From contig CAIYHO010000287.1 in the NCBI GenBank assembly GCA_903925955.1, positions 1-61,339 on the forward strand: 61,339 nucleotides of DNA, in the 5' to 3' direction. Positions 5,543-32,548 of the stretch are shown here, one piece after another (positions within the stretch are counted from its first letter, which is position 1; the number at the start of each line of letters is the position of its first letter). Under the pieces are notes generated by a model. The model was given only the letters and a program-made list of their open reading frames with translations. It did not search any database and had not been told where the DNA came from. The stretch is from an uncultured Chloroflexota bacterium. Lineage in GTDB: Bacteria > Chloroflexota > Limnocylindria > Limnocylindrales > CSP1-4. Both the position numbers and the translations under genes were made by a program.

Positions 5543-5562
5543 TCTCGTCATGTCCGAACCGG

Positions 5563-10055: not shown

Positions 10056-10076
10056 CGGTACATTCGAGGAGTCCTG

Positions 10077-10463
10077 ATGCCCATCCCCCTGTACCAAGCT
10101 AAGGCCGAGTTCTTCCGGACGCTGGGCCACCCGGCCCGCATCCGCATTCTGGAGCTGCTCTCGGAGCGCGATCACGCGGTGCACGAGTTGCTGGCCGAGA
10201 TTGAGATTGAGCCCAGCAACCTCAGCCAGCAACTGGCCGTGCTGCGCCGGGCGGGCCTTGTCGCGCAGCGTCGCGAGGGCCACACGGTGCTCTACGCAAT
10301 CAGCGTCCCCGAGGTTCGCGACCTGCTGCTTGCCGCCCGAGGCATCCTCCGCGGCGTGCTGGACGACCAGGGGCTGCTGCGCGCCAGCCTGACCGATGCC
10401 GACGACGTCGAGGCAACAGCCGTCGCGCCGCTGACGTCCATGCTGGCCGGAGCCGCAGGGTGA
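10077..10463 (+). CDS. ArsR/SmtB-family transcriptional regulator
   Basis: 128 aa. AEFFRTLGHPARIRILELLSERDHAVHELLAEIEIEPSNLSQQLAVLRRAGLV is the canonical ArsR winged HTH. Confidence 0.9.
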   Translation: MPIPLYQAKAEFFRTLGHPARIRILELLSERDHAVHELLAEIEIEPSNLSQQLAVLRRAGLVAQRREGHTVLYAISVPEVRDLLLAARGILRGVLDDQGLLRASLTDADDVEATAVAPLTSMLAGAAG

Positions 10464-14911: not shown

Positions 14912-15868
14912 CTAGAAGATCGCGATCGGGTTCCAAGGCGAGCCCGTCGCGCCAGGAAGGCGGAGTGGCAAACCCACGACCATAAACTCGAAGCGTTGCT
15001 CTTCTTCGCAGGCGCGGGCCAGATCCTCCAATTGGAGGCTGTCCGAGGTGCACATGCCCATTGCGACGATCTGCAACGCGTGGATCGGATAGAGCATCCC
15101 CTCCACATTGCTAGGGACGGTCTCTCCGTCACCATCGGGCAGGAACGCGGCCACCCCGCGCTCATGCATCCAGGGAATGGTGTCGACGTGGAGGCCGGGC
15201 TTGCCCTCTCCGGGGGCGTAGCCGTTGTCCCACGCCCCGAGGGCCAGCCGCCGCGCATGGTGGCCGGTACGGAAGACGAAGATGTCTCCCTCACCAACGT
15301 GCACGCCCTGCGCCTGCTCCACCGCCTCCAGTTCTGCGCGCGTGACGGCCTCGCCCGGCTCCAGCCAAGGTACGCCGCGGAAGCGTGGAACGTCGAGCAG
15401 CACCCCACGGCCCACCACCCCGTTGGCGAGATTGGCGATGTCGAGCGAGGTACCGCCCTTGGACGTCATCACCACGTTGGCTTGCCGGCCGTTGTAGACC
15501 TGTCCTCGGTAGGCAATGTGGTTGAGGGCGTCGATGTGGGTGTGGCAGTCGCCGTGGAATGCCATCCCCAAATAGTCGAGCGCGAACGTCAGACCGCTCG
15601 ATCCGATGTCGATGTCATGCGCCTGAGTGACGAAGTGCTGCGCCGGGTTGGGATTATCTGGGCCCGCGACTTTGTTGATTGGGATCGACATCGACACGCG
15701 GCGCCCGGACCGTACCAACGCTGCAGCGTCGGTGACACGTGCGGGAGTGATCAAGTTCAGGGTACCGAGTTGGTCGTCCGGTCCCCACCGGCCCCAGTTC
15801 CTGACGGCCTCGAACACTTCGTTGAACTCGGCCAGGGAGACCCTGGCAGGCGGCGTCATCTGCGCCAT
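14912..15868 (-). CDS. Cyclase-family metal hydrolase (kynurenine-formamidase-like, PF04199-type)
   Basis: ORF 14912..16003 trimmed to ATG 15868 (GAGGAGG RBS upstream). Motifs: WGRWGPDDQLGTLN and HGDCHTHIDALNH (the HxGTHxDxPxH-like metal motif). Confidence 0.8.
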   Translation of the reverse strand: MAQMTPPARVSLAEFNEVFEAVRNWGRWGPDDQLGTLNLITPARVTDAAALVRSGRRVSMSIPINKVAGPDNPNPAQHFVTQAHDIDIGSSGLTFALDYLGMAFHGDCHTHIDALNHIAYRGQVYNGRQANVVMTSKGGTSLDIANLANGVVGRGVLLDVPRFRGVPWLEPGEAVTRAELEAVEQAQGVHVGEGDIFVFRTGHHARRLALGAWDNGYAPGEGKPGLHVDTIPWMHERGVAAFLPDGDGETVPSNVEGMLYPIHALQIVAMGMCTSDSLQLEDLARACEEEQRFEFMVVGLPLRLPGATGSPWNPIAIF

Positions 15869-15896
15869 TGCGGTCGCCTCCTCATGCTGCCGGAGC

Positions 15897-17006
15897 TCAG
15901 AGATCGTTGCCGGGGATGGCCCGCACCCGCGCGTCGAAAGCATCGATCGCTGCGACGCCGTCAAGTGCGCCGACCTCGAGGTCGTACGAGCGGGTGGTGC
16001 CACGCTTGAGGATGATCAGCTCGCCGCGCTCACGCGCGTCGAAACGACCGGCATCACGGTTGGTGGCGGGCTCGAGAGCCATCGCGTACGTGTCCTCACC
16101 CATCATGCGCCACACCGTGTGGTGCGGAAGCTGAGAGATCTTGAACACCTGGTAGACGCCGAGGCCGATGGCGCGGTTCACTACGCCAACGGGCACCGAC
16201 CCGTCAGCCTCCGCCACCAGCTCGTGTTCGAAGCAGGCCTCGGTAAAGTCCGGGATCGGCGCGGACATCGTCCGGTAGCCATCAACGGGAACGCCGTAGC
16301 TTGTGGTGGTCTCGGACGCGGGGACGATCAACTGCGCCCCGGCGTCAAGGACGGGAAAGCCCACGTTGCAGTGGTATAGGAGCAGGTGGGCGACATCGGT
16401 GTGGCCTACGTTCTCCACTTCGTCGTGGATGGTGAAGTGGGACTCGCCCACCTTGGCCTCGACGCGGCGGCGCAACAGCAGATGCTCCGCAAAGACGCTG
16501 GACTGGAGCACCTCGCCCTCGGCCCACAACACGCACTCGTCCCCATCCCAACGCTCGCCGTAGCCCACGAGGCGCGCCGGGAGGCCGCCGATGCGCCCGT
16601 GTACGCCGAAATTCACTGTCGACCCAAGATGGGTCTGGTTGAAGGGCGCGGCAGTGTCCTCGCCGGCCATCCCGAGGTGGTCGAGGCCGACGGTCACGAC
16701 CATGCCGCCGCCCCAGGCCCGGAACCAGCCCATGCCCTCGGCCTCGTAGTACCACGGGGCGACAATGCCGGCATTCGACGTCCAGTTCAGCGGGCGCCCG
16801 CCAAGCTCACAGCGGCCGATGTCGAAGCTCCGGTCCACCACAATGTCAAAACTGAAGCCGGTCCCCGTCCGGAATTCGAGAAGGCGGACGTCGCGCCCAA
16901 GCCCGTCGCCGAGCGTCACCTGCCGTACGCCCGCCACCTGGTCCAGACGGCCAACACGGGCCAGCAGCTCCGACCGCGAGTACTGGGATCCGAACAGCTT
17001 GGGCAT
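15897..17006 (-). CDS. DUF4432 / aldose-1-epimerase-fold protein (function unknown)
   Basis: 369-aa ORF with good coding character. The N-terminus LFGSQYSRSELLARVGRLDQVAGVRQVTLGDG..RLLEFRTGTGFSFDIVVDRSFDIG matches my memory of DUF4432 (mutarotase-like). The family call is less certain than the gene call. Confidence 0.65.
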   Translation of the reverse strand: MPKLFGSQYSRSELLARVGRLDQVAGVRQVTLGDGLGRDVRLLEFRTGTGFSFDIVVDRSFDIGRCELGGRPLNWTSNAGIVAPWYYEAEGMGWFRAWGGGMVVTVGLDHLGMAGEDTAAPFNQTHLGSTVNFGVHGRIGGLPARLVGYGERWDGDECVLWAEGEVLQSSVFAEHLLLRRRVEAKVGESHFTIHDEVENVGHTDVAHLLLYHCNVGFPVLDAGAQLIVPASETTTSYGVPVDGYRTMSAPIPDFTEACFEHELVAEADGSVPVGVVNRAIGLGVYQVFKISQLPHHTVWRMMGEDTYAMALEPATNRDAGRFDARERGELIILKRGTTRSYDLEVGALDGVAAIDAFDARVRAIPGNDL

Positions 17007-18303: not shown

Positions 18304-19062
18304 CTAGTGCATGCCGCGTCCACCGGCGACGATCAGCAGCTCGCCGGTGATGAAGGCGGCGTCATCGGACGCCAGGAAGGCCGCGGACGCCGCAACGTCA
18401 CCGGGCGTGCCCCAGCGGGCGAGCGCGGTCTCCTCGAGGATCCGCTGGTGCACTTCAGGATCGATGTCCTCCATCATGTCCGTGCGGATCCAGCCGGGAC
18501 AGATGGCGTTGACCCGTACCTGCGGACCCAGGGCAAGCGCCATGGCCTTCGTCAGGCCGTTCATGCCTGCCTTGGACACCACGTACTCGGTGAAGCGCAT
18601 GGCCGACGGGTGGTACAAGCCGGAGTTGGACGAGATATTGATGATCGTCCCGCCGCCCTGCGCAACCATCACCGGCGCCACGGCCTTGGAGCACAGATAG
18701 GCGCCCTTGAGGTTCACGTCAATCGTGCGGTCCCAGTCGTCCTCGTCGGTCTCCATGAGGCTCTTGGTGATCATGATCCCCGCGTTGTTGACGAGGATGT
18801 CGATGCGCCCAAAGTGGTCCAGGGTGGACTGCACCATGGTGGCAACGTCGCTGCCCCGCGATACGTCAGCCTGCAGCGCCACGGCGCGCCCGCCTGCCAG
18901 CACAATCCCGGCCACGGCCGCGTCGGCCTCGGCTTCACGGGCAACGTAGTTCACGACGACCGCAGCGCCCTCGTCGGCCAGGCGACGTGCGACCGCCAGG
19001 CCGATCCCCCGCGAGGAGCCCGTGACGATGGCGACCCTACCGGACAGCCGTTGCTCACCCAT
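18304..19062 (-). CDS. SDR-family oxidoreductase (FabG-like)
   Basis: 252 aa. Motifs: VAIVTGSSRGIG, NNAG, YVVSKAG (YxxxK). Confidence 0.9.
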   Translation of the reverse strand: MGEQRLSGRVAIVTGSSRGIGLAVARRLADEGAAVVVNYVAREAEADAAVAGIVLAGGRAVALQADVSRGSDVATMVQSTLDHFGRIDILVNNAGIMITKSLMETDEDDWDRTIDVNLKGAYLCSKAVAPVMVAQGGGTIINISSNSGLYHPSAMRFTEYVVSKAGMNGLTKAMALALGPQVRVNAICPGWIRTDMMEDIDPEVHQRILEETALARWGTPGDVAASAAFLASDDAAFITGELLIVAGGRGMH

Positions 19063-19065: not shown

Positions 19066-20052
19066 TCACGACCGCGCTGACGCTGTCGCGCCGACAGCGG
19101 TTCGGACGCCCGCCACGATGTCGTCCACCTGCGGCACCGAGGCCTTCTCGAGCGCTAGGTTGAAGGGGATCGTCGTGTTGTAGCCGGCCACGCGGATGAT
19201 GGGCGCCCGGAGGGCATCGAACGCGCGCTCGGCCACGATAGCGGCCACGTCGCTCGCCACGCCGCCGCGCTTGACAGCTTCCTGGGCTATCACCAGACGG
19301 CCGGTCTTGCGCACGGAGTCCAATATTGAGTCCACGTCCATGGGCACCAGCGTCCGGAGGTCGATGACCTCTACAGAGATCCCTTCGGCCGCAAGGATCT
19401 CGGCCGCCCGCAGACTCTTGAGGACCATATGCGACCACGCGACGAGGGTCACGTCGGACCCGCTGCGCTTGATGTCGGCGCGCCCCAGCGGGATCACGTA
19501 CTCGCCGTCTGGGACTTCTCCGTCCGTCATGTAGAGCAACTTGTGCTCGATGAAGATGACGGGGTCCTCGTCGCGGATTGCGGCCGTGAGCAGACCCTTT
19601 GCGTCGGCCGGGGTGGCCGGCATGACCACCTTCAGGCCGGGCACGTGGTAGTAGAGCGCCTCGAGGCTCTGCGAATGCTGCCCCGCAAGGGAGTTGCCCG
19701 TCCCGCCCTGCGTGCGGATGACCATGGGCACAGTGCCCTCACCGCCGGACATGAAGTGATACTTGGCGGCCTGGTTGATCACCTGGTCCATGGCCAGGAG
19801 CAGGAAGTCAACGAAGAGGATCTCCACCACCGGCCGCCGCCCCGCGATGGCCGCCCCCACGCCAAGCCCGACGAACCCGGCCTCGCTCAGCGGCGTGTCG
19901 ATGACGCGCCCGGCGCCATACTTGGTAATGAGCCCTTCGGTGACCTTATAGGACCCTCCGCGCTCGCCGATCCCCTCGCCAAGGCAGAACACGCGCTCGT
20001 CGCGTCCCATCTCCTCGTCGAGGGCCGCCCTGAGGGCTTCGCGGTACTTCAT
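19066..20052 (-). CDS. TPP-dependent 2-oxoacid/acetoin dehydrogenase E1 component, beta subunit
   Basis: 328 aa. MKYREALRAALDEEMGRDERVFCLGEGIGERGG..VIDTPLSEAGFVGLGVGAA is the canonical E1-beta (transketolase pyrimidine-binding plus C-terminal domains). Confidence 0.9.
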   Translation of the reverse strand: MKYREALRAALDEEMGRDERVFCLGEGIGERGGSYKVTEGLITKYGAGRVIDTPLSEAGFVGLGVGAAIAGRRPVVEILFVDFLLLAMDQVINQAAKYHFMSGGEGTVPMVIRTQGGTGNSLAGQHSQSLEALYYHVPGLKVVMPATPADAKGLLTAAIRDEDPVIFIEHKLLYMTDGEVPDGEYVIPLGRADIKRSGSDVTLVAWSHMVLKSLRAAEILAAEGISVEVIDLRTLVPMDVDSILDSVRKTGRLVIAQEAVKRGGVASDVAAIVAERAFDALRAPIIRVAGYNTTIPFNLALEKASVPQVDDIVAGVRTAVGATASARS

Positions 20053-20131
20053 CGTGCGGAGTGTCCTTCCCGGTGCTGCTGGCCGGCGAGCCGGCGTCGA
20101 TCTTCGGTGCGGGTGCTGAGTGAGATCCGGC

Positions 20132-21094
20132 CTACTGCGAAGAGACCTCGGCGAGGAACGCTTCTACCGATGGATTGGGGCTTGCGTTTGCCACGTCGAC
20201 CGCCTCGTCCATCACCTGCTCGACACGCTCGTCGACGGCGGCGATAGCTGCATCGCGCACGCCCGCCTCCGTCAATCGCGCGCGGAGCACGATGAGTGGG
20301 TCCCGTTCCTTCCACCGTCGGAGTTCGTCCTGCGGGAGGTAGAGGCCCGGATCGTTCACGTGGTGGCCGCCGTGGCGGAACGTCATGCACTCGATGAGCG
20401 ACGGCCCTTCGCCGGCCCGGGCCTTGCGGAGCGGTTCGGTCATCGCCTCCAAGACCACGACCGCGTCGTTGCCATCAACGGTCACCCCGGGCATCCCATA
20501 GGCAGCCGCGCGGTCCGACAGCCGGTCCACGCGCGCACTGTCACGGATGGGAGTGGAGACAGCGTACTGGTTGTTCTCCAAGACGAAGATGACCGGCAGG
20601 TCCCATATGGCCGAGAGGTTCATGGCCTCATGCCAGATGCCGTTGGCCGTAGACCCGTCGCTGCAGAACGCGACTACCACCTCGGTACCGCCCCGCTGCT
20701 TGATTGCCATCCCGGCGCCGGCCGCGATTGCCAGCCCGCCACCGACGATCCCGTTGGCCCCAAGGTTTCGGATCGACCGGCTTGCCACGTGCATGGAGCC
20801 GCCGCGGCCGCGGCAATACCCATCTTCCTTCCCGAACAGTTCGGCCATCATCCTGCGTGGGTCATGGCCCTTGGCGATGGCGTGCCCGTGGCCCCGATGT
20901 GTGCTGACGATGTAGTCGTCCGGCTCCAGAGCCGCGATCGCCCCCACTGCGATGGCCTCCTCCCCGAGGTAGGGGTGGAGATAGCCACGGATGTTCCCGA
21001 GGCGATACTGCTCGATGGCGCGCTGCTCAAACCGGCGGATGGTGGCCGCGGTCTCGTACATCGCCAAGAGCCCAAGCGCGTCGGTGACAGTCAT
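20132..21094 (-). CDS. TPP-dependent 2-oxoacid/acetoin dehydrogenase E1 component, alpha subunit
   Basis: 320 aa. Motifs: HPYLGEEAIAVG, STHRGHGHAIAKG, and the TPP motif GDGSTANGIWHEAMNLSAIWDLPVIFVLENNQYA. Confidence 0.9.
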   Translation of the reverse strand: MTVTDALGLLAMYETAATIRRFEQRAIEQYRLGNIRGYLHPYLGEEAIAVGAIAALEPDDYIVSTHRGHGHAIAKGHDPRRMMAELFGKEDGYCRGRGGSMHVASRSIRNLGANGIVGGGLAIAAGAGMAIKQRGGTEVVVAFCSDGSTANGIWHEAMNLSAIWDLPVIFVLENNQYAVSTPIRDSARVDRLSDRAAAYGMPGVTVDGNDAVVVLEAMTEPLRKARAGEGPSLIECMTFRHGGHHVNDPGLYLPQDELRRWKERDPLIVLRARLTEAGVRDAAIAAVDERVEQVMDEAVDVANASPNPSVEAFLAEVSSQ

Positions 21095-21129
21095 AGGTTC
21101 GCGGCTCTCCGTAGGGGCATCAAGTTGAC

Positions 21130-22080
21130 TCAGTACTCGGGGACGACGCGTCCGGCCATCACATCCATCTGGATCTGCTCAAGCTCTGCCCCGTCCAGGA
21201 ACGACATGATGGCCCCCAAAGAGGCGGCATCGGTCGATCGCCCAACGAGGGCCGCCCGCGTGTCCCGATCACCGACCTGGTCGCGGACGGTCTCTGAGAG
21301 CGGGCGGTCAAGCACGCCGTCCGGCCAGCGAACGCGCATCTCGTCGATGGTCCAGACCGCTGCGTCGCCGCGCCCGTCGGCGAGCAGCCGAGCAATCTGC
21401 ACACCCATCGCCGGGACGAGTTCCACCTCCTCGCCGGCAAACTCCAGCGCCGTCAGCAGCTGCTGATCGGCTGAGTGCCGGTCGATGATGACGCGCAGCG
21501 GTCCGCGGGCGTCCTCCGGCGACGTGTAGAAGACCCGGTGGCCCGTGTTGTAGGTCAGCGCCGGAAGCTCTGCCATCACCGAATCACCGCTGTCGCAGAG
21601 CTGCGATGCCGCGAAGCTCGACATCACCGCGAGATGGCAGCGGCCCTCGCGCACCGCCTGGAGGCGCTGGCGTGAACCGCGGACGAAGATGAGGAAGACA
21701 TCCGTCGTCACCACGCTAAGCAACTGCTTCAGGGATGTCGCCAGCGCCTCGTACCGGGGCGACGACGCAAGGGGCAGAGCGATCACGAGGGGCCGCCCGT
21801 TCTCGGCGATTGTCCACAGCCGCCCAACCGACCGTCCCACCATGAAGGCGCCTTGGCGACCGCGCATCTCAATGCCCACCGCCTCGGCCTCGATGAGCCG
21901 TGAAATCGCGGCGTGAACTGACGACGGACTTGACTGGTGCTGCTGGGCAAGCTCACGGACCGTCGGCAGGCGAGCTGGCGGGGCAGGACTGCCCAAGAAC
22001 CGGCGGGCAAGCACTGGCACGAGATCGGCCACGGCACGAGCGCGATTGCGTTCGCGGTTTTCAAACATGAAACGGATCAT
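21130..22080 (-). CDS. YhfZ-family putative transcriptional regulator (GntR-like wHTH plus YhfZ C-terminal domain)
   Basis: ORF 21130..22491 trimmed to ATG 22080 (MIRFMFENR). Segments LVIALPLASSPRYEALATSLKQ, VRGSRQRLQAVREGRCHLAVMSSFAAS and VIIDRHSADQQLLTALEFAGEEVELVP parallel E. coli YhfZ as I remember it. Confidence 0.8.
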   Translation of the reverse strand: MIRFMFENRERNRARAVADLVPVLARRFLGSPAPPARLPTVRELAQQHQSSPSSVHAAISRLIEAEAVGIEMRGRQGAFMVGRSVGRLWTIAENGRPLVIALPLASSPRYEALATSLKQLLSVVTTDVFLIFVRGSRQRLQAVREGRCHLAVMSSFAASQLCDSGDSVMAELPALTYNTGHRVFYTSPEDARGPLRVIIDRHSADQQLLTALEFAGEEVELVPAMGVQIARLLADGRGDAAVWTIDEMRVRWPDGVLDRPLSETVRDQVGDRDTRAALVGRSTDAASLGAIMSFLDGAELEQIQMDVMAGRVVPEY

Positions 22081-22251
22081 ATCGCCCCGCGTCCGCGCTT
22101 CGCAACGCGTCTCAGCGGACCTTCCACGGTGGACGCGGCATGCACTTGGCAGGTCCTTGCCGCACAACCGAGGCTGGCGAGCGCCGGTCCGCCGTCCGGG
22201 GACGCCCAGCCGCGCGGCCGTGATGCGGGCTTTGACACGGGCGGTAGTCTG

Positions 22252-22285
22252 TGATTGTTCTGTGTACTCGCACAAAGAACAATCA
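22252..22285. promoter_or_regulatory. AT-rich inverted repeat in the divergent yhfZ-like / permease control region (candidate operator)
   Basis: TGATTGTTCT (22252-22261) and AGAACAATCA (22276-22285) are perfect 10-bp arms around 14 nt. It is the most AT-rich spot of the 461-bp divergent intergenic region. Confidence 0.4.
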
Positions 22286-22541
22286 GGTCGACAGAGATAT
22301 GAGAGGAGGATCTCGCCGAGGAAAGACATGATCCGGCTGGGCAGGGAGGCTGGATCCGGTGACTCGGCGGTCACACGTCCCCGGGAACCGCGCGCATGCG
22401 GCGCCTCATCGACGCTGCCGTCTGGCGCGACCTGGCTTGTACCAGTTACGCGGGCAAGGCCCGCACCCCAAAGGCGGCCCAACCCGAGCATCTGCCGCCC
22501 ACAGATTGATGGCTACCTGAACTGGTGAAGGAGCGACCTCT

Positions 22542-24002
22542 ATGACCGAGGCGACGGCCAAGCCCCCGGCCGCATTGCACTCAGACCTCGAACGCAACGC
22601 GATCGGGGCGCTCGGCGCCACGATGCAGGCAATCACGCACATCTCGCCGGCAATTGCTGCGTTCTTCTACACGCAGTTCGTGGTCTCGCTCGCCGGGATC
22701 ACGGCCCCCATTGCGTACCTGATTGGCTTCCTGCTGGTGCTGATGCTGGGCAACAGCCTCGTGCAGCTGTCGAAGCACCTGCCGTCCGCCGGCAGCTACT
22801 ACACGTACGTGAGCCGCGCGATCCATCCCCGGATCGGCTTCCTCACTTCATGGATGTACGTCCTGTACTCCCCGCTCTGCGGCGGCCCGATCTACGGGTT
22901 CTTCGGCTTCATCGCCGCGGGCGCCCTGAAGAGCTACTACAACATCGACGTGCCCTGGCTGTGGTGGGTGTGCATCGCGGTGGGCGCCCCGCTCGTCGCA
23001 TTCCTCCAGCACAAAGGGATCAAGATCTCCACCAAGGCCATGCTGGTCCTCGGCGCGTTCGAGATCGGCATCGTCTTCCTGCTTGCTCTCTCGGGGTTCC
23101 TCCATCCGGGCGCTGGCGGCATCTCGCTGGCCGTGTTCAACCCGGCCAACATGCTCAAGGACAGCGGCGGCGCACTCGCTATCTCCGGCTTCACGCTGGC
23201 GATCGTGTTCTCCGTCCAGGGCCTGACCGGCTGGGAGGCCGCGGCCCCGCTCGCCGAAGAAACTCAGAACCCGCGCCGGAACGTCCCGATCTCGGTGATC
23301 GCGTCGATCACCCTGATTGGCGCCTTCCTTGTGTTCGTGTTCTGGGGAATCATCACCTACTTCGGCGTGGACAGCATCGGCAACCTGATCAACTCCAAGG
23401 AACTGCCCGCCCTGGCAATGGCCCAGGACCTGTGGGGCGGGTTCTGGCTGCTGCTCCTGTTCGCGTTCCTCAACAGCGTGATCGCCGTCTGCCTTGCCAC
23501 CGCCAACGTCGGCACCCGCATGTGGTACGCGATGGCGCGCAGCGGATCCTTCCCCAAGGCACTCGCCAAGGTCGAGCCCAAGAGGAAGACTCCGACCAAC
23601 GCGATCCTGCTTCAGATGGTCCTCTCGCTCGTAGCGGGCATCGGCGTTGGGTTCTGGTTCGGCGCCGACGTGTCGTTCTTCCTGATCGACGGCCTGATCC
23701 TCGTGATCGGCGTGACCGTCGTCTACCTGTTCGCGAACCTCTCCGTGTTCATGTTCTACCGAGGCGAGAAGAAGGCGGAGTTCAACGTGCTGCTGCACGT
23801 GGTGTTCCCGCTCCTCTCGTCGTTGGTGCTCATCTACGCGGTTGTCCAGTCGTTCAACCCCGCACCAGCGGAGCCGTACAGCTGGGCGCCAGTCATCGAC
23901 GGTGTCTGGTTCCTGGCCGGCGTGGTCATCCTGGTCTGGATGCGCGCTCGCGGTCGCGAGGACTGGCTCCTCAACGCCGGTGAGGCCATCGCCGAGGCCT
24001 AA
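22542..24002 (+). CDS. APC-superfamily amino acid/polyamine permease
   Basis: 486 aa, 12 TM. GAAGGAG RBS 8 nt upstream of the ATG. Typical APC N-terminal region (LERNAIGALGATMQAITHISPA..). Confidence 0.9.
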   Translation: MTEATAKPPAALHSDLERNAIGALGATMQAITHISPAIAAFFYTQFVVSLAGITAPIAYLIGFLLVLMLGNSLVQLSKHLPSAGSYYTYVSRAIHPRIGFLTSWMYVLYSPLCGGPIYGFFGFIAAGALKSYYNIDVPWLWWVCIAVGAPLVAFLQHKGIKISTKAMLVLGAFEIGIVFLLALSGFLHPGAGGISLAVFNPANMLKDSGGALAISGFTLAIVFSVQGLTGWEAAAPLAEETQNPRRNVPISVIASITLIGAFLVFVFWGIITYFGVDSIGNLINSKELPALAMAQDLWGGFWLLLLFAFLNSVIAVCLATANVGTRMWYAMARSGSFPKALAKVEPKRKTPTNAILLQMVLSLVAGIGVGFWFGADVSFFLIDGLILVIGVTVVYLFANLSVFMFYRGEKKAEFNVLLHVVFPLLSSLVLIYAVVQSFNPAPAEPYSWAPVIDGVWFLAGVVILVWMRARGREDWLLNAGEAIAEA

Positions 24003-24032
24003 TCGGCCCCGCTTACGAAACCTTCCAAGGCA

Positions 24033-24062
24033 CCCCGGCGGCCGCTTCGGCGGCCGCCGGGG
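24033..24062 (+). terminator. Strong GC hairpin after the permease gene
   Basis: CCCCGGCGGCCGC-TTCG-GCGGCCGCCGGGG: a perfect 13-bp stem with a TTCG tetraloop, 31 nt after the stop. No U-tract, which is common in high-GC actinobacteria. Confidence 0.55.
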
Positions 24063-24166
24063 AACTCTGGGCCCGGGGCACCCAACGTCGCGCTCCGCAC
24101 GAGCCGTCGGTGCCAGACCCACCCACCACCGGGCACGAAACAGTGGCATCAAGGAGTTTGAGTAGG

Positions 24167-24934
24167 ATGGAAAAGCGGTTCGTCGGCAAGGTTGCGCTGG
24201 TGACCGGCGCGACAAGCGGCATCGGACAAGCAACGGCTGTCCGGCTGGCGGCCGAAGGTGCGGTCGTTGCGGTGAACGCGCGACCAACCGGTGACGCCAC
24301 CGAGACGCTCGGCAAGATCAAGGAGGTAGGCGGCGAGGGCTTCGCGGTTGTCGCCGACATGCGCGACCCCGCTCAAGTCGTGGCAATGGTCCAGGAGACG
24401 GCGCAGCGGGGCGGCCGCCTCGACTACCTCGTGTCCAACGCCGCCATCAACCCGTTCAGGCCCTGGGACACAACGACCGTCGAGGATTGGAACGACCTCT
24501 CCGAGACAAACCTACGAGGCACGTGGGTGGTGACAACCGAGGCCGCCAAACAGATGATCAAGGAGGGGCACGGAGGGGCGATCTGCTGCACGAGCTCCAT
24601 CTCGGCGCACGTTGGCTCCCCGTTCCAGACGGCGTATTGCGCCACCAAAGCCGGCATCTCGATGTGGGTCAAGGCGTTCGGCTCCGTGGTGGGCACGCAC
24701 GGGATCCGCGTCAACGCGGTTGAGCCCGGCTGGATCCTCACCAAGATGGCCGCACCGATGTTTGACGACCCCGCCGCGGTGAAGTACTACGAAGAGCGAA
24801 TCGCGCTGCATCGGCCGGGCGAGCCCACCGAACTGGCCGGGGCCATCGCGTTCCTGCTGTCTGACGATGCCAGCTACGTGACCTCCGCCACCCTGCTGGT
24901 GGACGGCGGGTTCATCGTCAACGCCGAGCTGTAG
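24167..24934 (+). CDS. SDR-family oxidoreductase
   Basis: ORF 24110..24934 trimmed to ATG 24167 (AAGGAG RBS at 24151). Motifs: VALVTGATSGIG, NAAI, YCATKAG (YxxxK). Confidence 0.9.
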   Translation: MEKRFVGKVALVTGATSGIGQATAVRLAAEGAVVAVNARPTGDATETLGKIKEVGGEGFAVVADMRDPAQVVAMVQETAQRGGRLDYLVSNAAINPFRPWDTTTVEDWNDLSETNLRGTWVVTTEAAKQMIKEGHGGAICCTSSISAHVGSPFQTAYCATKAGISMWVKAFGSVVGTHGIRVNAVEPGWILTKMAAPMFDDPAAVKYYEERIALHRPGEPTELAGAIAFLLSDDASYVTSATLLVDGGFIVNAEL

Positions 24935-24963
24935 GCCCTACAGGGTCAAGAGGAGGGATCGAC

Positions 24964-25227
24964 GTGGCCGTGCGCGTGGTGATGCCCCAAGCGGGCCAGG
25001 ACCTGGAGACAGGGACGGTCCGGCAGTGGCTCAAGGCCGAGGGTGACGCCGTGATCAAGGGCGAGCCGCTGGTCCAGATCGACACCGAGAAGATCTCTGT
25101 TGAGGTGGAAGCACCGGCGTCCGGGACCCTGCTCCGGATCCTGGTCCCAAACGAGACGGACACCGCAATCCTCTCGACGATCGCCATCATCGGCAACCCC
25201 GGTGAGGACATCTCCGGCATCGAATGA
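24964..25227 (+). CDS. Stand-alone biotinyl/lipoyl-attachment domain protein (87 aa)
   Basis: MAVRVVMPQAGQDLETGTVRQWLKAEGDAVIKGEPLVQIDTEKISVEVEAPASGTLLRI is an E2-type lipoyl domain with a candidate acceptor Lys in DTEK. No E2 catalytic domain follows. Confidence 0.8.
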   Translation: MAVRVVMPQAGQDLETGTVRQWLKAEGDAVIKGEPLVQIDTEKISVEVEAPASGTLLRILVPNETDTAILSTIAIIGNPGEDISGIE

Positions 25228-25290: not shown

Positions 25291-26757
25291 ATGAGCCTCA
25301 TCGGTATCGATCTCGGGACCAGCGCGATCAAGGTGGTCGCGTACTCGACCGACGGTACTGTGCTGGCGCAATCCAGCAGTACCGTGCCCGCGTACCGTCC
25401 ACAGCCTGGCCATTGGGAAGTTGACGTCAGCGAGTCTCGGGCGGCCTTCGATGCCGCCCTCTCGGCCGTTGCCGGCGACCCGGCCGTCCGGCAGGACCCA
25501 CCCGTTGCCTTGTCCTTCAGTTCATCTGGCCGCGAGGTCTTCCCGGTGGCGGAGGACGGCACTCCGCTGGGGCGCTGCCTGATGACGCCGGATGTCCGAG
25601 GCGACGACGTGGCCGCCGAGACCGCGGCTCGCCGATCACCCGAGGACTGGTTTCGCCTGACTGGTCACGTGCCACGGCGGATGGACCCAGTCAACCGGGC
25701 CCTCTGGTGGCGCAAGAGCCATCCCGAGGTGGCCGCGAAGGCGCGGTGGTTCATGAACTGGCACGAGTACTACGCTCTGCTGCTCAGCGGACGCCCGGTG
25801 GTGGACTGGAGCGACGCTGGGACTTGGGCAACCTATGACGTGGCCACGGCGGGCTGGTCCGCTGAACGCATTGCCGAGACCGGGATCGACCCGCGCTGGT
25901 TGCCGGAGATCCGACCCAACGGTGACCCGATAGGCCAGATCCTGCCGGAGGCGGCCCGGCGCTATGGCCTGCCCGCTGACATGTTGGTAGTGACCGGCGC
26001 ATACGATGCCTATGCCGCATCGGTTGGCGCTGGCGCGGTGGACTCGGGGTTTGTCGCGCTCGCCTGCGGGACCTGGAACAGCTTCAATACGCCGGTCCTG
26101 CCCGGCTGGCCCGAGGGGCTGGTCAATGACGGGATGAATGTGTTCCCGCACCCAGGTCCCACGGGCTTCGGAATCCTGGTCACGAACCCCAACGGGATGA
26201 GCGTGGTGGATTGGGCTCGCGGCCTTCTGCACCTGTCAATTGAGGACCTGGAGACGGGCCTCGCCGCAGCCGGCCCTGGTCCGGGCTACGTGTTCGCCGA
26301 TGCGGCATTCACGCCCCTACCTCACGTCGTCGCGGACGAGGGCTTCGGCTGCACCTTCTCGGGAGTGACGCTCGCGTCCACCGGCGTCGACATCGTTCGA
26401 TCGCTGCTCGAGGCTATTGCCTGCGAGTTCTCGCTGAGCCTAGACACGCTGCGATCACACGGAGTCGAACCCGTTTTGGTACGGGCGACCGGCGGTGGCT
26501 CGCGGAATGGCTGGTGGCTCCAGTTGATCGCAGACGTGTCTGGCGTCCCCGTTGAAGTGGTGGCGCAGGAACAGCCGGGGGCGTTCGGCGCTGCGATCCT
26601 CGCTGGCGTCGGAGCAGGCGTCTACCCGTCGGTCTCCGAGGCGATCGGGCGCCTTGTGCGGGTTGCGCGCCGGTTCGAGCCAGAGGCAGCGCGGGGACGC
26701 CGCTACGACGGTGTCCGCAGTCGCCTGGCCGAGCGCGGCGGGAGTGGGCGGCCATGA
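25291..26757 (+). CDS. FGGY-family carbohydrate kinase (xylulokinase-like)
   Basis: ORF 25231..26757 trimmed to ATG 25291 (MSLIGIDLGTSAIKVVAYSTDG..). C-terminal GGGSRNGWWLQLIADVSG and GAAILAGVGAG motifs. Confidence 0.85.
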   Translation: MSLIGIDLGTSAIKVVAYSTDGTVLAQSSSTVPAYRPQPGHWEVDVSESRAAFDAALSAVAGDPAVRQDPPVALSFSSSGREVFPVAEDGTPLGRCLMTPDVRGDDVAAETAARRSPEDWFRLTGHVPRRMDPVNRALWWRKSHPEVAAKARWFMNWHEYYALLLSGRPVVDWSDAGTWATYDVATAGWSAERIAETGIDPRWLPEIRPNGDPIGQILPEAARRYGLPADMLVVTGAYDAYAASVGAGAVDSGFVALACGTWNSFNTPVLPGWPEGLVNDGMNVFPHPGPTGFGILVTNPNGMSVVDWARGLLHLSIEDLETGLAAAGPGPGYVFADAAFTPLPHVVADEGFGCTFSGVTLASTGVDIVRSLLEAIACEFSLSLDTLRSHGVEPVLVRATGGGSRNGWWLQLIADVSGVPVEVVAQEQPGAFGAAILAGVGAGVYPSVSEAIGRLVRVARRFEPEAARGRRYDGVRSRLAERGGSGRP

Positions 26758-27839
26758 CCTCCACCACACCGCTGTCGGCGATGTCCGCCTCGATGGCGCT
26801 CTCCACGCCTGCCCTCGTCGTTGACCTTGACGTACTCGACGCGAACGTCGCCGCAATGGCAAGACTCCTCATCGGGACGGGCAAGACCATCCGTCCACAC
26901 ATCAAGACCCACCGGACCCCGGAACTGGCCCGCCGCCAGCTCGGCGGGGCTGCGGTGGGGCTCACGTGCGCCACCGTGGGCGAGGCGGAGGCCATGGTTC
27001 ACGCCGGCTTCACGGACGTGCTCATCGCCAACGAGGTGGTGGACCCGGCCAAGATCGCTCGCCTCGCAGCCCTGGCTCATCGCGCTGATGTCACGGTCGC
27101 CGTTGACGACCCAGAGCCGATCGGCGCCCTGTCGCGGGCGGCAATTGGCGCCGGCGTCACGGTAGGCGTACTCATCGACGTGGACATCCTGTTGCACCGG
27201 TGCGGCGTGGGATCCGCTACCGACGCCGTGGGCCTGGCGCAGGTCATCAGCCGCTCCCCAGGGCTGCACTTGCAGGGGATCATGGGCTATGAGGGGCGCG
27301 TCCGGCTGACCGAGCCACACCGCGACCAGCAGATCTCGGGTGCGTACGCGGCCCTCAGTGCGGCCGCGGCGGCCATCCGCGATGCGGGCTTCAGCGTGGA
27401 GACCGTGTCCGCCGCCGGCACGTCAACCATCGCGGAGGCACTCGCACACCCTGAGATCACGGAGATCCAGGCCGGGGTGTACGCGCTGATGGAGCCGGAG
27501 TTGCTGATCATGGACCTGCCGTTCCGGTGCGCGGTCACGTTGCGCGGCACCGTCATCAGCCGTCACCCCGGGCGGATCGTGCTGGACACCGGCCGCCGCG
27601 TCGTTGGGATGGAGTACGGCCCACCGACCCCCGTTGGGTTTGCCGTCCACGGGATCGCGATGGGCGACGAGCACGCAACGCTCACGATGGATGACCCATT
27701 GCCGGCTCTGGGCAGCCAACTGGACCTGACACCCGGCCAGGTCCGCACAACCTTCAACCTCCACGACCATGTCTGGGTCAGCCGCGGGGGCCACATCGTT
27801 GATTGCTGGCCGATCACCGCACGCGGCAGCTCGCAGTAG
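26754..27839 (+). CDS. DSD1-family fold-type III PLP enzyme (D-serine dehydratase / D-threonine aldolase-like), paralog 1
   Basis: 361 aa. The start overlaps the kinase stop (ATGA). STPALVVDLDVLDANVAAMA..IRPHIKTHRTPELARRQL (PLP lysine in HxKTH), then GYEGR and a C-terminal DEHA motif. Confidence 0.8.
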   Translation: MTSTTPLSAMSASMALSTPALVVDLDVLDANVAAMARLLIGTGKTIRPHIKTHRTPELARRQLGGAAVGLTCATVGEAEAMVHAGFTDVLIANEVVDPAKIARLAALAHRADVTVAVDDPEPIGALSRAAIGAGVTVGVLIDVDILLHRCGVGSATDAVGLAQVISRSPGLHLQGIMGYEGRVRLTEPHRDQQISGAYAALSAAAAAIRDAGFSVETVSAAGTSTIAEALAHPEITEIQAGVYALMEPELLIMDLPFRCAVTLRGTVISRHPGRIVLDTGRRVVGMEYGPPTPVGFAVHGIAMGDEHATLTMDDPLPALGSQLDLTPGQVRTTFNLHDHVWVSRGGHIVDCWPITARGSSQ

Positions 27840-27866
27840 CAACCGCCCGCACAGGAGAGCGCAATC

Positions 27867-29030
27867 ATGCTGGACCCCAAGCCGCTCATAACTGCGGCCC
27901 ACGATCGGGTGCTGGAGCTGTATCGACCGGATCTTGGGCGCCTGCGCGAGGAGCTCGCCACGCCCACCCTGCTCCTCGACTTGGCCGTGTTGCGCGCCAA
28001 TCTCGCGTTCATGGGCGACAACATGCGCGACGTGCCCACAGCCTTGCGCGCGCACGTCAAGGTCCACAAGAGCCCCCATATCGCGCGCCTCCAGATGGAG
28101 TACGGCGCGACCGGCGTAGGCTGTGCGACGGTATGGGAGGCCATCGTGATGGCCCGCGCCGGGATCGACGACGTGTTCGTCATCAACGAGGTCGTTGGTG
28201 CGGAGCGGGTCCGAGCGCTCGCACTTCTGGCTCGTGAGGCAAGCGTCAAGACAGCCGTGGACGACGTCGCGCAGGTGGACGCCCTGTCGCGGGCCGCCGT
28301 CGCCGCGGGCAGCACCATCGGGATCCTCGTGGACGTTGACGAGGGTATGCACCGGTGCGGCGTCGCATCGCCGGATGAGGCGCTCATCGTTGCCCGGCGC
28401 GCGGCCGACGCCCCTGGCCTGCAGTTCCTGGGGCTCACGGGGTACGAGGGGCACTGCTCGCTGGAGTTTGACGCGACCAAGCGGACCGCCATGGCGCGCG
28501 AGGCGATGGCCTACTTCACGGGAGTCGCCGAGCACTTGGCGGCCAACGGGCTCCCAAGCGAGATCGTGACCGCCGCCGGGACAGGGACCTGGGAGGTCAC
28601 CTCGCGCTACCCCGGGATCACCGAGATCCAGCCTGGGTCGTACGCGACGATGGACGGTCACCACCGAGGCCTAGACGCCCGCTTCGGCTGGGCGGTCACG
28701 GTGCTGGCCACGGTGATCAGCCGTCGGTCTGACCGCGTCGTCCTCGACGCTGGCAGCAAGACGGTTGGCGCGTCCCACGGCGTCCTCGCCGCTCCGCCCC
28801 TCGCGACATACCGCTTCGACGAGGAGCACTCGACCTTCCTCGCGGACAGCTCCTGCGCCCTACGAGTGGGCGACACGGTGGAGATCCGCTGCAACTACAC
28901 CCCCTTCGCGATCAGCTACTTCGAGGCGTACCACGTCATCGAAGGCGGGCGTGTGGTGGACATCTGGCCGGTCCTACCGCGCGGGCCGGAGTCGCGGTGG
29001 CTGCTCGACATGCTGGAGCGGGGCGAGTGA
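27867..29030 (+). CDS. DSD1-family fold-type III PLP enzyme, paralog 2
   Basis: 387 aa. Motifs: TPTLLLDLAVLRANLAFM, RAHVKVHKSPHIARLQMEYGATG, GYEGHCS, FDEEHSTF. Confidence 0.8.
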   Translation: MLDPKPLITAAHDRVLELYRPDLGRLREELATPTLLLDLAVLRANLAFMGDNMRDVPTALRAHVKVHKSPHIARLQMEYGATGVGCATVWEAIVMARAGIDDVFVINEVVGAERVRALALLAREASVKTAVDDVAQVDALSRAAVAAGSTIGILVDVDEGMHRCGVASPDEALIVARRAADAPGLQFLGLTGYEGHCSLEFDATKRTAMAREAMAYFTGVAEHLAANGLPSEIVTAAGTGTWEVTSRYPGITEIQPGSYATMDGHHRGLDARFGWAVTVLATVISRRSDRVVLDAGSKTVGASHGVLAAPPLATYRFDEEHSTFLADSSCALRVGDTVEIRCNYTPFAISYFEAYHVIEGGRVVDIWPVLPRGPESRWLLDMLERGE

Positions 29031-29070
29031 GGTCCGGCGCCAGTCCGGCCGCGTGAAGGAGCACCGCAAG

Positions 29071-30258
29071 ATGCGAGATCCGGCGCCGCTCATAGTCGAG
29101 GCGCACAACCGCGCGCGCGACCTGTACGGGTCCGCCATCGGGCGGAGCCGGTTCGACGTCTGCACCCCTGCCCTGGTGGTGGACCTCGGGGTACTGCGCG
29201 GCAACCTCGCGTACATGCAGAGCCGTCTGCCAGCGCTGCACGCGCGCCTGCGCGGCCACGTGAAGAACCACAAGAGCCCGCATATCGCCAGGATGCAGCT
29301 GGAGTACGGCGCGTTTGGCCTGTGCGCGGCGACCGTGTGGGAGGCCATCGTCATGGTCCGCGCGGGCGCTGACGACGTGCTGATCGCCAACCAGCTCGTT
29401 GATCCGGTCAAGCGACGGGCGGCCGCGCTGCTCGCCCGCGAGGCCAACGTCCTCGTAAACGTCGACGACGTGGGCGACGCCCAGGCGCTGTCGGCAGCAG
29501 CCGTCGCCGCAGGCTCCACTATCGGCGTGCTGCTCGAGGTGGACACCGGCATGCACCGCTCGGGCGTGGACAGCGCCGAGGAGGCGGTCAGGGTCGTCAG
29601 CGGGATTGTAAACCTGCCGGGAATACGGTTCGACGGCCTGTCCGGCTACGAGGGCCACTGCTCAATGGAGATGGACCACGAGGCCCGGCACGCCAAGCAA
29701 CAGGCGGCAATCGCCTACTTCGTGGAGGTCGCGGATCAGTTGGCCGAGGCCGGTCTGCCGTGCAGGATCCTGTCAGCGGCCGGCACCGCCACCGCGTTCT
29801 GGACGGGCTCCAACCCGCGCATTACCGAGCTCCAACTGGGCTCGTACGCGGCCATGGACGACTACCACTACCTCATGGAGCCGCGCTTCCGGAAGGCGAC
29901 CTCCGCCGTGGTCACCGTCATCAGCCGGCGCGAGGATCGGCTGGTGCTCAATCTTGGCAAAAAGACATTCGGGTCGGCCGACGTGGGCGGGATACCCGCA
30001 TACCCGCGGATCATGGGTTTCGAGGACCTGCCGCCCTATCGCTTCGACGAGGAGCACGCGACGTATGTCGTGGACGATTCGTGTCCCCTCAAGGTGGGCG
30101 ACGTCGTGGACTTCCACCTGGGCTATACGCCATTCGCAGTCAACTACTTCGACGCGTACCACGTTGTCGAAGACGGCAAGGTGGTGGACATCTGGCCGAT
30201 CATGCCCCGCGGTCCCCTCCACGGTGGACTCTTGGGCGAACTCGAACCACGGATCTGA
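29071..30258 (+). CDS. DSD1-family fold-type III PLP enzyme, paralog 3
   Basis: ORF 28765..30258 trimmed to ATG 29071 (GAAGGAG RBS). Motifs: TPALVVDLGVLRGNLAYM, RGHVKNHKSPHIARMQLEYGAFG, GYEGHCS, FDEEHATY. By eye closest to paralog 2. Confidence 0.8.
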   Translation: MRDPAPLIVEAHNRARDLYGSAIGRSRFDVCTPALVVDLGVLRGNLAYMQSRLPALHARLRGHVKNHKSPHIARMQLEYGAFGLCAATVWEAIVMVRAGADDVLIANQLVDPVKRRAAALLAREANVLVNVDDVGDAQALSAAAVAAGSTIGVLLEVDTGMHRSGVDSAEEAVRVVSGIVNLPGIRFDGLSGYEGHCSMEMDHEARHAKQQAAIAYFVEVADQLAEAGLPCRILSAAGTATAFWTGSNPRITELQLGSYAAMDDYHYLMEPRFRKATSAVVTVISRREDRLVLNLGKKTFGSADVGGIPAYPRIMGFEDLPPYRFDEEHATYVVDDSCPLKVGDVVDFHLGYTPFAVNYFDAYHVVEDGKVVDIWPIMPRGPLHGGLLGELEPRI

Positions 30259-30323: not shown

Positions 30324-30707
30324 ATGCGCACCGCGCGCGAGGTCGCAGAATCGTACTGGTCGGCGGAATGCCGACGGGACATCGACGCGATCATGGCCCA
30401 CTACCAGCCCAACGCCACGTACCAAGACGGGGCGGGCTTCCTTGAGGGCTACGACGCCATCCGGGGCTACTACGAGGCGTCCATCCGGGACTTTCCGGCC
30501 CTGGAGGTGACGATCCGGCGCGAATTCGCGGGGTCGCCGGACTCGTCCGCGCTCGAGGTCCACGCAGTGCTCACGGACCACACGGGCAACCGTTCCGTCA
30601 TCGAGGGCCTGATCGCCATCACCGTGCGCGACGGCAGGCTCGACCACATCCGCTGCTACGAGGACCCCCTCAGGCCCGAGCCAGCGGCAGGCCAGAAGGT
30701 CCCATGA
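30324..30707 (+). CDS. SnoaL-like / NTF2-fold small protein
   Basis: ORF 29760..30707 trimmed to ATG 30324 (GAAGGAGAGG RBS). The 127-aa sequence MRTAREVAESYWSAECRRDIDAIMAHYQPNATYQD.. is a typical SnoaL/NTF2-like opening. Confidence 0.65.
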   Translation: MRTAREVAESYWSAECRRDIDAIMAHYQPNATYQDGAGFLEGYDAIRGYYEASIRDFPALEVTIRREFAGSPDSSALEVHAVLTDHTGNRSVIEGLIAITVRDGRLDHIRCYEDPLRPEPAAGQKVP

Positions 30708-31768: not shown

Positions 31769-32548
31769 TCAGCCCGCGAGGCACGCCTCGAGGTCGGCGA
31801 GGGCGATGAACGGCCCGGGGTGTGCCCCGGCACGGTTCGCGAGGATGTGCGCCTCGGGTCCGCCGGGCTCGCCCAGCGAGGACACGACGAGCGCGGCCTC
31901 GGCGAAGCCCTCGGCCTCCGTGTAGCCGTTGACCGTCACGAGGCACCGCAGGCCGGCGGCGGTCGCCGCCTCGAGCCCGTTGCGGGAGTCCTCCACGACG
32001 ACCACGTCGGCCGGGTCCGCGCCGAGCCGCCTGAGCGCGAGCAGGTAGATGTCCGGCGCGGGCTTCTTCCGGGCCACGACGTCCCCCGCGAGCACCGCGT
32101 CAAACCGCGCCGCCCGCTCGTGCCCCGCGGCCATGTCCAGGATCGCCCGGACGGACGCCTCGGCCGAAGTGGACGCCACGGCGAGCCTCCAGCCGGCGTC
32201 CTGCGCCTCCGCGATCAGCCGGGAGACGCCCGGGCGCGGCGGCAGCCGTCCCGCCCGCGCCATCTCCGTGTAGATCTCGGTCTTGCGCCTGTGCCACGCG
32301 GCCACGTGCGCCGCCAGGGCGGCCGGGTCGTCGGGCAGGCCCGCGGCGCGGATGACGTCGGGCGTGAGGGCGCTGGCCATCCGCTCCTTGCCGCCCGCGA
32401 TCCTGAGGCGCTCGCCGTACTCCTCCTCGGACCACCGCAGCGGCAGCCCGAACTCGGCGAACACGGCGTTGAACGCGGGCAGGTGCCCGTACCGCTCGGT
32501 GTCCGCGAGGACCCCGTCGCAGTCGAAGACGACGGCCCTCACTGCCAT
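31769..32548 (-). CDS. HAD-superfamily phosphatase, CbbY-like
   Basis: 259 aa. VVFDCDGVLADTE (DxDG), GGKERM, KKPAPDIY, EDSRNGLEAATAAGLRCLVT. It aligns along its length with my memory of Rhodobacter CbbY. The start overlaps the aldolase stop by 10 nt. Confidence 0.8.
   Translation of the reverse strand: MAVRAVVFDCDGVLADTERYGHLPAFNAVFAEFGLPLRWSEEEYGERLRIAGGKERMASALTPDVIRAAGLPDDPAALAAHVAAWHRRKTEIYTEMARAGRLPPRPGVSRLIAEAQDAGWRLAVASTSAEASVRAILDMAAGHERAARFDAVLAGDVVARKKPAPDIYLLALRRLGADPADVVVVEDSRNGLEAATAAGLRCLVTVNGYTEAEGFAEAALVVSSLGEPGGPEAHILANRAGAHPGPFIALADLEACLAG

Follow-up and report, generated by a model that had tools for sequence, protein, structure and literature searches.

2-Oxoacid and acetoin dehydrogenases are the textbook case of substrate channeling on a tethered swinging arm. 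Their E1 enzymes require a cognate lipoyl domain; E2 cores and E3 are tolerant. Acetoin dehydrogenase splits acetoin into acetaldehyde and acetyl-coenzyme A (acetyl-CoA). In glycine cleavage, the small free lipoyl H protein is loaded by a decarboxylase and serves untethered enzymes, and the E3 (L protein) is shared. OdhA (KGD) of corynebacteria and mycobacteria lacks a lipoyl domain and relies on those of the E2 of pyruvate dehydrogenase (PDH). In the quinocarcin (QncN/QncL/QncM) and scleric acid (SclQ1-4) systems, an E1-like enzyme dependent on thiamine diphosphate (ThDP) moves a C2 unit from a ketose phosphate to a lipoyl group (PMC6335953). We analyzed a stretch of 61,339 nucleotides (nt), called the window below, which is the entire contig C287 of a soil Chloroflexota metagenome-assembled genome (MAG; 3.64 Mb, 308 contigs, 92.5% complete). 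It encodes the two subunits of an E1 and, as a separate small gene, a lipoyl protein:

20132-21094, minus strand: E1 alpha, the ThDP-binding subunit, 320 amino acids (aa), PF00676 at 267 bits
19066-20052, minus strand: E1 beta, 328 aa, PF02779 at 144 bits and PF02780 at 130 bits
24964-25227, plus strand: free-standing lipoyl carrier, 87 aa, acceptor Lys43, PF00364 at 54 bits

An earlier note, made from this DNA alone, had described the two E1 genes, the lipoyl protein on the opposite arm, and no E2 core or E3 anywhere in the 61 kb. Our analysis agrees: the Pfam scores are far over the cut-offs, the strands differ, and neither a hidden Markov model (HMM) search of the whole genome nor a tblastn search at E<=10 found an E2 core or an E3 on this contig. 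With a probability of roughly 0.5, we read the genes as an untethered system of the pyruvate/acetoin dehydrogenase type, set in a sugar/amino-polyol catabolic island, whose E2 core and E3 act in trans.

Acetoin dehydrogenase (AcoA/AcoB, AcoC, AcoL) resembles the island in having a heterotetramer-type ThDP E1, a lipoyl acceptor, a catabolic rather than central role and an adjoining short-chain (butanediol-type) dehydrogenase. Moreover, the nearest annotated relatives of E1 alpha, at 50% identity, lie on rhizobial plasmids and, in Shinella, stand beside an AcoC-type E2, LpdA, and a class II aldolase with a HAD gene. However, the island has no AcoL and no AcoC (no alpha/beta-hydrolase, 2-oxoacid_dh or docking domain); on the window contig, the AcoC model NF011457 matches through its lipoyl part only (positions 4-101, 67 bits), without the hydrolase part. 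Also, the lipoyl domain of the island stands alone, as a protein of 87 aa encoded in a different operon. The substrate of the island E1 is almost certainly not acetoin. With canonical 2-oxoacid dehydrogenases (Geobacillus and human PDH, branched-chain 2-oxoacid dehydrogenase), the island shares the E1 fold, the catalytic residues, and the sequence and fold of the lipoyl domain. It differs from them in that its parts are untethered, with no E2 core and no peripheral-subunit-binding domain (PSBD), and in eight clade-specific substitutions of E1 alpha; its E1 alpha scores 332 bits against the PDH equivalog model TIGR03182 (PDH_E1_alph_y), under the cut-off of 394.

Glycine cleavage (P, H, T and L proteins) is comparable in working principle only, namely by analogy of a small free lipoyl carrier with a shared E3; its H protein belongs to PF01597, its loader depends on pyridoxal phosphate (PLP) and not on ThDP, and its cargo is aminomethyl, not acyl. 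The OdhA case likewise has 2-oxoacid dehydrogenase parts serving each other in trans, but in the reverse direction, OdhA being a core without a carrier and the island a carrier without a core. The Qnc and Scl systems provide a precedent for sugar-phosphate cleavage by an E1 and lipoyl pair. However, those systems fuse the lipoyl domain with an acyltransferase domain, use a dedicated acyl carrier protein (ACP) as acceptor, and belong to a biosynthetic cluster; the island is catabolic, and no acyltransferase and no ACP (PF00550, which matches only contigs C224 and C116) is found in the window. By analogy, the closest working parallel to the island would be an acetoin/pyruvate dehydrogenase in which the swinging arm has turned into a diffusible carrier, as in glycine cleavage. 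A full-text literature search, subscription journals lying outside it, found no description of an E1 paired with a lipoyl-only protein, only carriers of the GcvH/LbpA type and the Qnc/Scl precedent. The layout is genuine and conserved and has apparently not been described before, although it amounts to a textbook system in stripped-down form, with parts from known families.

The carrier is a canonical lipoyl domain. Its PF00364 score of 54 bits compares with a cut-off of 22, its whole length can be aligned with lipoyl domains of solved E2s, Lys43 falling on the lipoyl-lysine, and all NCBIfam and PDB sequence matches are lipoyl proteins. The acceptor motif is IDTEK, continuing as TEKI, and the (A/V)MKM biotinyl motif is absent. 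A predicted model is all-beta, with K43 in a hairpin turn between strands 35-40 and 45-49, and its top fold matches are E2 lipoyl domains (TM about 0.7); as its confidence is moderate (mean pLDDT 63.5) and the alignment shallow, we used it for topology only. The gene starts with GTG, 6 nt behind a strong Shine-Dalgarno sequence, GAGGAGGG, and lies 29 nt after a short-chain dehydrogenase gene (SDR2) and 3 nt before the open reading frame (ORF) of an FGGY kinase.

A protein search limited to lengths of 47-153 aa gave 400 matches. The best 120 of these are 86-89 aa long (nearly all 87) and 74-87% identical to the carrier; the segments MPQAGQDLETG, TEK and VEAP are invariant, as are K43 and its flanks. 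On these alignments, the carrier is under strong purifying selection. In about 60 loci from genomes and metagenome contigs (61-87% identity), some on contigs of 1.5, 2.2 and 3.5 Mb, the frame ends after 84-91 residues in every case. Below about 60% identity, the matches become the N-terminal lipoyl domains of ordinary E2s of 380-580 aa. The same stop in about 60 loci and the lack of any E2 relic in the window led us to reject the carrier as a truncated or mis-assembled E2.

The earlier note had read the acceptor motif correctly as DTEK and had given weight to its departure from the usual form. That weight is misplaced: many full-length E2s carry TEK, including the nearest to the carrier, the sister E2s of 452-456 aa from Desulfobacteraceae. 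We therefore rejected DTEK as a special acceptor motif, and TEK is no mark of the orphan state.

Free-standing lipoyl proteins of 81-88 aa with E(T/S)AKA motifs also occur in other lineages (L156:5203-5430, L159, L172, L083). In L156 and L172, a match to the E2 catalytic domain starts 40-50 nt past the end of the lipoyl one, giving the appearance of a split E2. The free lipoyl protein of L083, from Gammaproteobacteria, has E1 alpha/beta nearby, and no core was detected.

We located the E2 and E3 functions in the genome with the HMM searches that the earlier note had proposed (PF00364, PF00198, PF02852). The E2 families PF00198 and PF02817 match only contigs C46 and C181, with nothing on the window contig; PF02852 is likewise absent from it and matches C46, C181 and, with a non-Lpd protein, C43. 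Searching the window by tblastn with E2 cores and E3 returned only noise at E<=10 and no relic. An E2 joining lipoyl, peripheral-subunit-binding and catalytic core domains, as in an assembled 2-oxoacid dehydrogenase, is thus missing from the window, and no orthologous locus that we fetched has a co-located E3. Contig C46 carries an E1 alpha, an E2 (lipoyl, docking and catalytic domains), LipA and an E3, and on C181 E1 alpha and E1 beta are fused into 794 aa, while E2 and E3 share one open frame of 912 aa. This second set lies at about 1500-6130 on the minus strand; its E2 (lipoyl, docking, catalytic) runs into the E3 without a stop, so that the frame holds either a fusion of E2 and E3 or a pair of genes that happen to be in phase. 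In total, the genome has two full E2s with docking domains (E3_binding/PSBD) and two Lpd-type E3s. Machinery for lipoylation is also present, with LipA on C46 and an LplA/LipB-type catalytic domain on C248. It holds exactly three lipoyl domains, two on the housekeeping E2s and one on the orphan carrier; the remaining PF00364 matches are biotin carriers (EAMKM, EAMKL) or unrelated proteins. Two findings that the earlier note had named as fatal to its proposal did not turn up: the carrier is no mis-assembled E2, and the E2/E3 sets lie on other contigs.

Both E1 subunits look catalytically intact. The Pfam scores identify the pair as a heterotetramer-type ThDP E1, and E1 beta reaches 407 bits against NF006667, over the cut-off of 321. 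The best solved relative of E1 alpha is human PDH E1 alpha; those of E1 beta are an archaeal or Thermus 2-oxoacid dehydrogenase E1 beta and that of Geobacillus PDH. In E1 alpha, the ThDP motif reads SDG...ENN, so that the two asparagines given in the earlier note (as GDG..NN) stand and the first glycine does not; the Asp and both Asn are kept, as is the loop His (GGHH, H244). E1 beta retains the Glu of DTPLSEAG and has His126 at the position of index 128 in PDB chain 1w85_B. We take the loop His, the beta His and the beta Glu to have the roles they have in the Geobacillus and human enzymes. Because the Asp, the Asn pair, the alpha loop His, the beta His and the cofactor-activating Glu are all kept, the E1 seems able to acylate a lipoyl group reductively.

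The glycine-to-serine change in the ThDP motif is fixed across the whole orphan-carrier clade. Eight E1 alpha residues (105, 109, 144, 145, 150, 154, 221 and 253) are fixed in this clade and differ from the residue conserved in 66 full-complex E1 alphas. Four of them fall inside the ThDP-binding motif (F144C, G145S, N150A, F154W), and R253L removes a conserved Arg after the loop Tyr. These substitutions would fit an altered substrate. For E1 beta, comparison of 19 orphan-clade with 69 full-complex sequences gave three columns that are conserved within both groups but different between them, and no obvious loss of a docking surface. Variable C-terminal tails of 5-12 residues are found on orphan-clade E1 betas and are absent from those of the sister full complexes.

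The E1 and the carrier occur together. Among 301 genomes of class Limnocylindria (one shared draw), six have an ortholog of the carrier, and the same six have an E1 alpha ortholog on the same contig, 5-7 kb away; one further genome has an E1 alpha ortholog, at a contig edge. The co-occurrence of E1 alpha/beta with an orphan lipoyl domain in other genomes, which the earlier note had suggested checking, holds in these six of 301 and across the roughly 60 loci. The island is patchy, occurring in 3-4 of 57 genera, a pattern in keeping with an accessory catabolic trait. Across locus maps, the constant core consists of E1 alpha, E1 beta, the carrier, one of two types of RuBisCO-like gene, and a YhfZ or DeoR regulator. 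To this, most loci add two dehydrogenases, an FGGY kinase and one to three PLP enzymes. SDR2 adjoins the carrier in most related loci, and the order of carrier followed by FGGY kinase is also found in most. A second short-chain dehydrogenase, SDR1, adjoins E1 beta in most loci covering that side, at times on the opposite strand.

Gene content, conservation, co-occurrence and intact catalytic residues are observed, and from these we infer every chemical step of the untethered system. Given the intact residues, an alpha2beta2 E1 would cleave its substrate on ThDP; this could be a 2-oxo acid or, likelier, an alpha-ketol or diketo sugar phosphate supplied by the neighboring dehydrogenases, kinase and RuBisCO-like enzyme. 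The strict co-occurrence suggests that E1 would then reductively acylate the lipoyl group on Lys43 of its private, freely diffusing carrier. An E2-type core would next hand the acyl group to CoA, a housekeeping E2 in trans in this genome and a dedicated bare core in genus g10 of the same family. Finally, as established biochemistry would predict, housekeeping dihydrolipoyl dehydrogenase would reoxidize the carrier. Since E1 needs a cognate lipoyl domain and E2 cores and E3 are tolerant, a new specificity could be added with an E1 and a matching carrier alone. If this is true, the swinging arm can serve as a diffusible carrier outside the glycine cleavage system, without tether, core or E3, and bacteria would gain a new ThDP-dependent oxidative cleavage with two small parts, the E1 genes and a matching carrier gene.

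Both interpretations offered in the earlier note, service in trans and cleavage of an acyloin or ketose with a mini carrier protein, survive and are partly supported. The first is helped by the two full E2/E3 sets elsewhere in the genome and by the bare E2 core within the g10 E1 operon. The second is helped by the adjoining short-chain dehydrogenases, by the context of sugar kinase, RuBisCO-like protein, aldolase and phosphatase, and by the relatives with an AcoC-type E2.

The relatives of the E1 point to sugar metabolism. In Shinella, the operon comprises E1 alpha, E1 beta, a transaldolase-family gene, an AcoC-type E2 (lipoyl, docking and alpha/beta-hydrolase domains) and LpdA, and its neighbors encode an ABC transporter of polyol type, a class II aldolase and a HAD phosphatase. 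Sinorhizobium meliloti has E1 alpha, E1 beta, E2, LpdA and LipA, next to genes for sugar transport and a sugar kinase. The same pair of class II aldolase and HAD goes with the island in the window and in relatives. The business end of the E2 varies among relatives, being a 2-oxoacid_dh core in L026 and L179 and an AcoC-type alpha/beta-hydrolase in Shinella. Because of the rhizobial clusters and the shared aldolase/HAD pair, we consider that this E1 lineage works in sugar/polyol catabolism with a variable E2 end (core, hydrolase or none). This context, together with the flanking dehydrogenases, makes an alpha-ketol or diketo sugar phosphate the more likely substrate of the E1, rather than a classical 2-oxo acid. 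One may speculate that a phospho-aldehyde product would be salvaged by the class II aldolase and HAD pair. The acyl group on the carrier would give a direct handle on the substrate of the island.

The Shinella locus (L178) is plasmid NZ_CP093338.1, 59946-78863, and its flanks hold a DUF2160-containing ABC transporter, a class II aldolase, HAD phosphatases, a TIM-barrel gene and triose-phosphate isomerase. The operon looks like an uncharacterized sugar-phosphate-cleaving relative.

In a quick maximum-likelihood tree of E1 alpha plus beta (a careful search did not finish), all orphan-carrier loci form one clade with support 100. Its sister group consists of E1 alpha-E1 beta-E2 operons of Desulfobacteraceae, whose E2 combines a lipoyl domain with two docking domains and a catalytic core. 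In the earliest orphan branch (L142, similarly L141), an 84-aa carrier stands directly behind E1 beta, at the usual position of an E2. The simplest history suggested by these sequences is that an E2 was truncated to its lipoyl domain and that the carrier was then moved next to the dehydrogenase and kinase genes.

Two genomes of genus g10 (L018 = G103, L174 = G150) have an operon of E1 alpha, E1 beta, short-chain dehydrogenase, RuBisCO-like gene, E2cat and HAD. The E2cat ORF of 268 aa, at L018:917-1723 in the first of them, consists of the PF00198 catalytic domain only (220 bits, DHRLLDG), with no lipoyl or docking domain; among the models, those of acetyltransferases come closest to it. The operon is of the same type in the window and L021, with DUF4432 and a cyclase-family gene where g10 has E2cat and HAD. 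Because a bare E2 core sits inside the g10 E1 operon, E2-type acyl transfer is the expected next step; the core shows that such transfer fits downstream of the carrier and points to ordinary acyl-lipoyl-to-CoA chemistry.

Several observations weigh against the untethered system as we propose it. Most genomes with the cluster, that of the window included, lack a dedicated E2 core; none was found near the island in genus g29 or in any other orthologous locus fetched, L018 and L174 being the only ones. Within the E1 tree, the g10 pair branches inside the crown, and its core is nearest to E2s of Dehalococcoidia at 42% identity, not to the sister E2s. These comparisons make late recruitment of the core likelier than an ancestral origin. 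In addition, the eight substitutions in E1 alpha, R253L among them, hint at chemistry unlike pyruvate decarboxylation.

The g10 core is 33-37% identical to the E2s of the window genome itself. The idea that carrier and g10 core arose by the splitting of one E2 is unsupported, as their nearest E2s are from Desulfobacteraceae (carrier) and Dehalococcoidia (core, 42%).

The scarcity of the core could also mean that no E2 takes part. In this alternative, which is possible but doubtful, a non-E2 enzyme of the island would unload the acyl group by hydrolysis or onto another acceptor, no CoA ester would form, and only the E3 would be borrowed. It gains from the fact that, among the orthologous loci fetched, only the two g10 loci have an E2 core near the cluster, and that the DUF4432 and cyclase-family (metal hydrolase-like) genes of the window and L021 lie exactly at the place of E2cat and HAD. 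That the E2 end is interchangeable in relatives (core in L026/L179, hydrolase in Shinella) agrees with it. However, most relatives have the cyclase and DUF4432 genes elsewhere in the operon, so that this exchange of places may be due to chance, and the recruitment of a genuine E2 core in g10 speaks for transfer to CoA. Furthermore, we know of no enzyme beyond E2-type domains that hydrolyzes or otherwise uses acyl-dihydrolipoyl proteins. An unlikely elaboration has E1 cleaving a keto-sugar phosphate and passing an acetyl or glycolyl C2 unit to the free carrier, from which a non-E2 island enzyme unloads it; the keto-sugar phosphate could, for instance, be a tetrulose or 1-deoxy-ketose phosphate made with the RuBisCO-like enzyme. 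If true, this would be a glycine-cleavage-like architecture for carbohydrate C-C cleavage with no E2 involved.

It is quite improbable that the E1 instead binds to the docking domain of a housekeeping E2 and works with the lipoyl domains tethered there, leaving the 87-aa protein an accessory role (redox buffer, regulator or E1 chaperone). Both housekeeping E2s do have E3_binding/PSBD domains, and the comparison of 19 with 69 E1 betas, with its three clade-specific columns only, would be compatible with docking. Yet the carrier and the E1 co-occur strictly and within a few kb, the earliest-branching locus has the carrier at the E2 position, and the carrier retains every hallmark of a lipoyl domain recognized by an E1; the variable C-terminal tails of the orphan-clade E1 betas also speak weakly against it.

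That the 87-aa frame is the stump of a broken or mis-assembled E2 and the E1 a leftover has practically no chance of being right: the assembly is a MAG in 308 contigs and lipoyl domains usually lie at E2 N-termini, but the conservation data already refute it, with the same stop in about 60 loci of independent assemblies (contigs of 1.5-3.5 Mb included), 74-87% identity with invariant functional residues in the best 120 of 400 relatives, no relic at E<=10, and a gene packed between SDR2 and the FGGY kinase with gaps of 29 and 3 nt.

The E1 and carrier pair marks an uncharacterized catabolic island with a RuBisCO-like protein, an FGGY kinase and three PLP enzymes of D-amino-acid type. On the minus strand, a tightly spaced operon runs from E1 alpha and E1 beta through a short-chain dehydrogenase, the RuBisCO-like gene, DUF4432 and a cyclase-family gene to a class II aldolase. 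The plus-strand operon comprises, in order, an APC permease, a short-chain dehydrogenase, the lipoyl protein, the FGGY kinase and three PLP enzymes resembling D-serine dehydratase; the gene of a YhfZ-type regulator is divergent from it. The other features are as follows:

14912-17006, minus strand: DUF4432 and cyclase-family genes, PF14486 and PF04199
17064-18323, minus strand: RuBisCO-like protein in the E1 operon, PF00016; MtnW-like at 261 bits, under the cut-off of 409
18304-19062, minus strand: short-chain dehydrogenase SDR1, 3 nt past E1 beta, PF13561 at 216 bits
21130-22491, minus strand: ORF of a YhfZ-type GntR regulator, 453 aa, PF14503 and NF041241, both matching from residue 160
22542-24002, plus strand: APC-family amino-acid permease, first gene of the carrier operon, PF00324 and PF13520
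24110-24934, plus strand: short-chain dehydrogenase SDR2, immediately upstream of the carrier, PF13561 and PF00106
25231-26757, plus strand: FGGY sugar kinase, PF00370 and PF02782; XylB-like at 196 bits, under the model cut-off
26754-30258, plus strand: three tandem PLP enzymes resembling D-serine dehydratase/D-threonine aldolase, PF01168 and PF14031 in each
30324-30680: SnoaL-like gene
31949-33393: class II aldolase and HAD pair accompanying the island

The three PLP enzymes are BhcC-like, with scores far under the cut-off of the BhcC model. In the regulator ORF (21130-22491), homology to relatives begins at residue 136; the true start is probably near codon 136-160, and the annotated start too far upstream.

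A RuBisCO-like gene of one of the two types is present in every genome-derived long-flank locus (L014-L024). The second type (L015:14099-15250; L016, L017, L019, L020, L022-L024, L094) is 38-41% identical to that of the window and is placed downstream of the PLP genes or right after the carrier; each island has one type or the other. In L014, the gene of the window type stands apart, on the opposite strand. The smallest version of the island, in L022, consists of DeoR, E1 beta-E1 alpha and then the carrier, the RuBisCO-like gene, UPF0261 and a PEP-hydrolase-like gene. The last two (L022:11635-13920; PF09370 for the PEP-hydrolase-like gene) replace the FGGY kinase and the PLP enzymes. UPF0261 also lies near the sister E1-E1-E2 operon in L026, fused there to an ABC ATPase.

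A conserved protein of about 240 aa without a Pfam match (L018:8378-9106) adjoins the carrier in many relatives, including L019, L023, L024 and L174-L177. It is often accompanied by a SnoaL-like gene, and it has no homologue in the window. On a metagenome contig (L140, about 8000-10300), a local duplication gives the order SDR2-carrier-SDR2-SDR2-carrier. The E1 genes of L019 are identical to those of genome G299. Genome G227 has two copies of the island, on contigs C4 and C6 (L176). In the C6 copy, E1 alpha (57% identity) has three in-frame TGA codons and E1 beta is fragmented, which reflects either a decaying copy or long-read errors.

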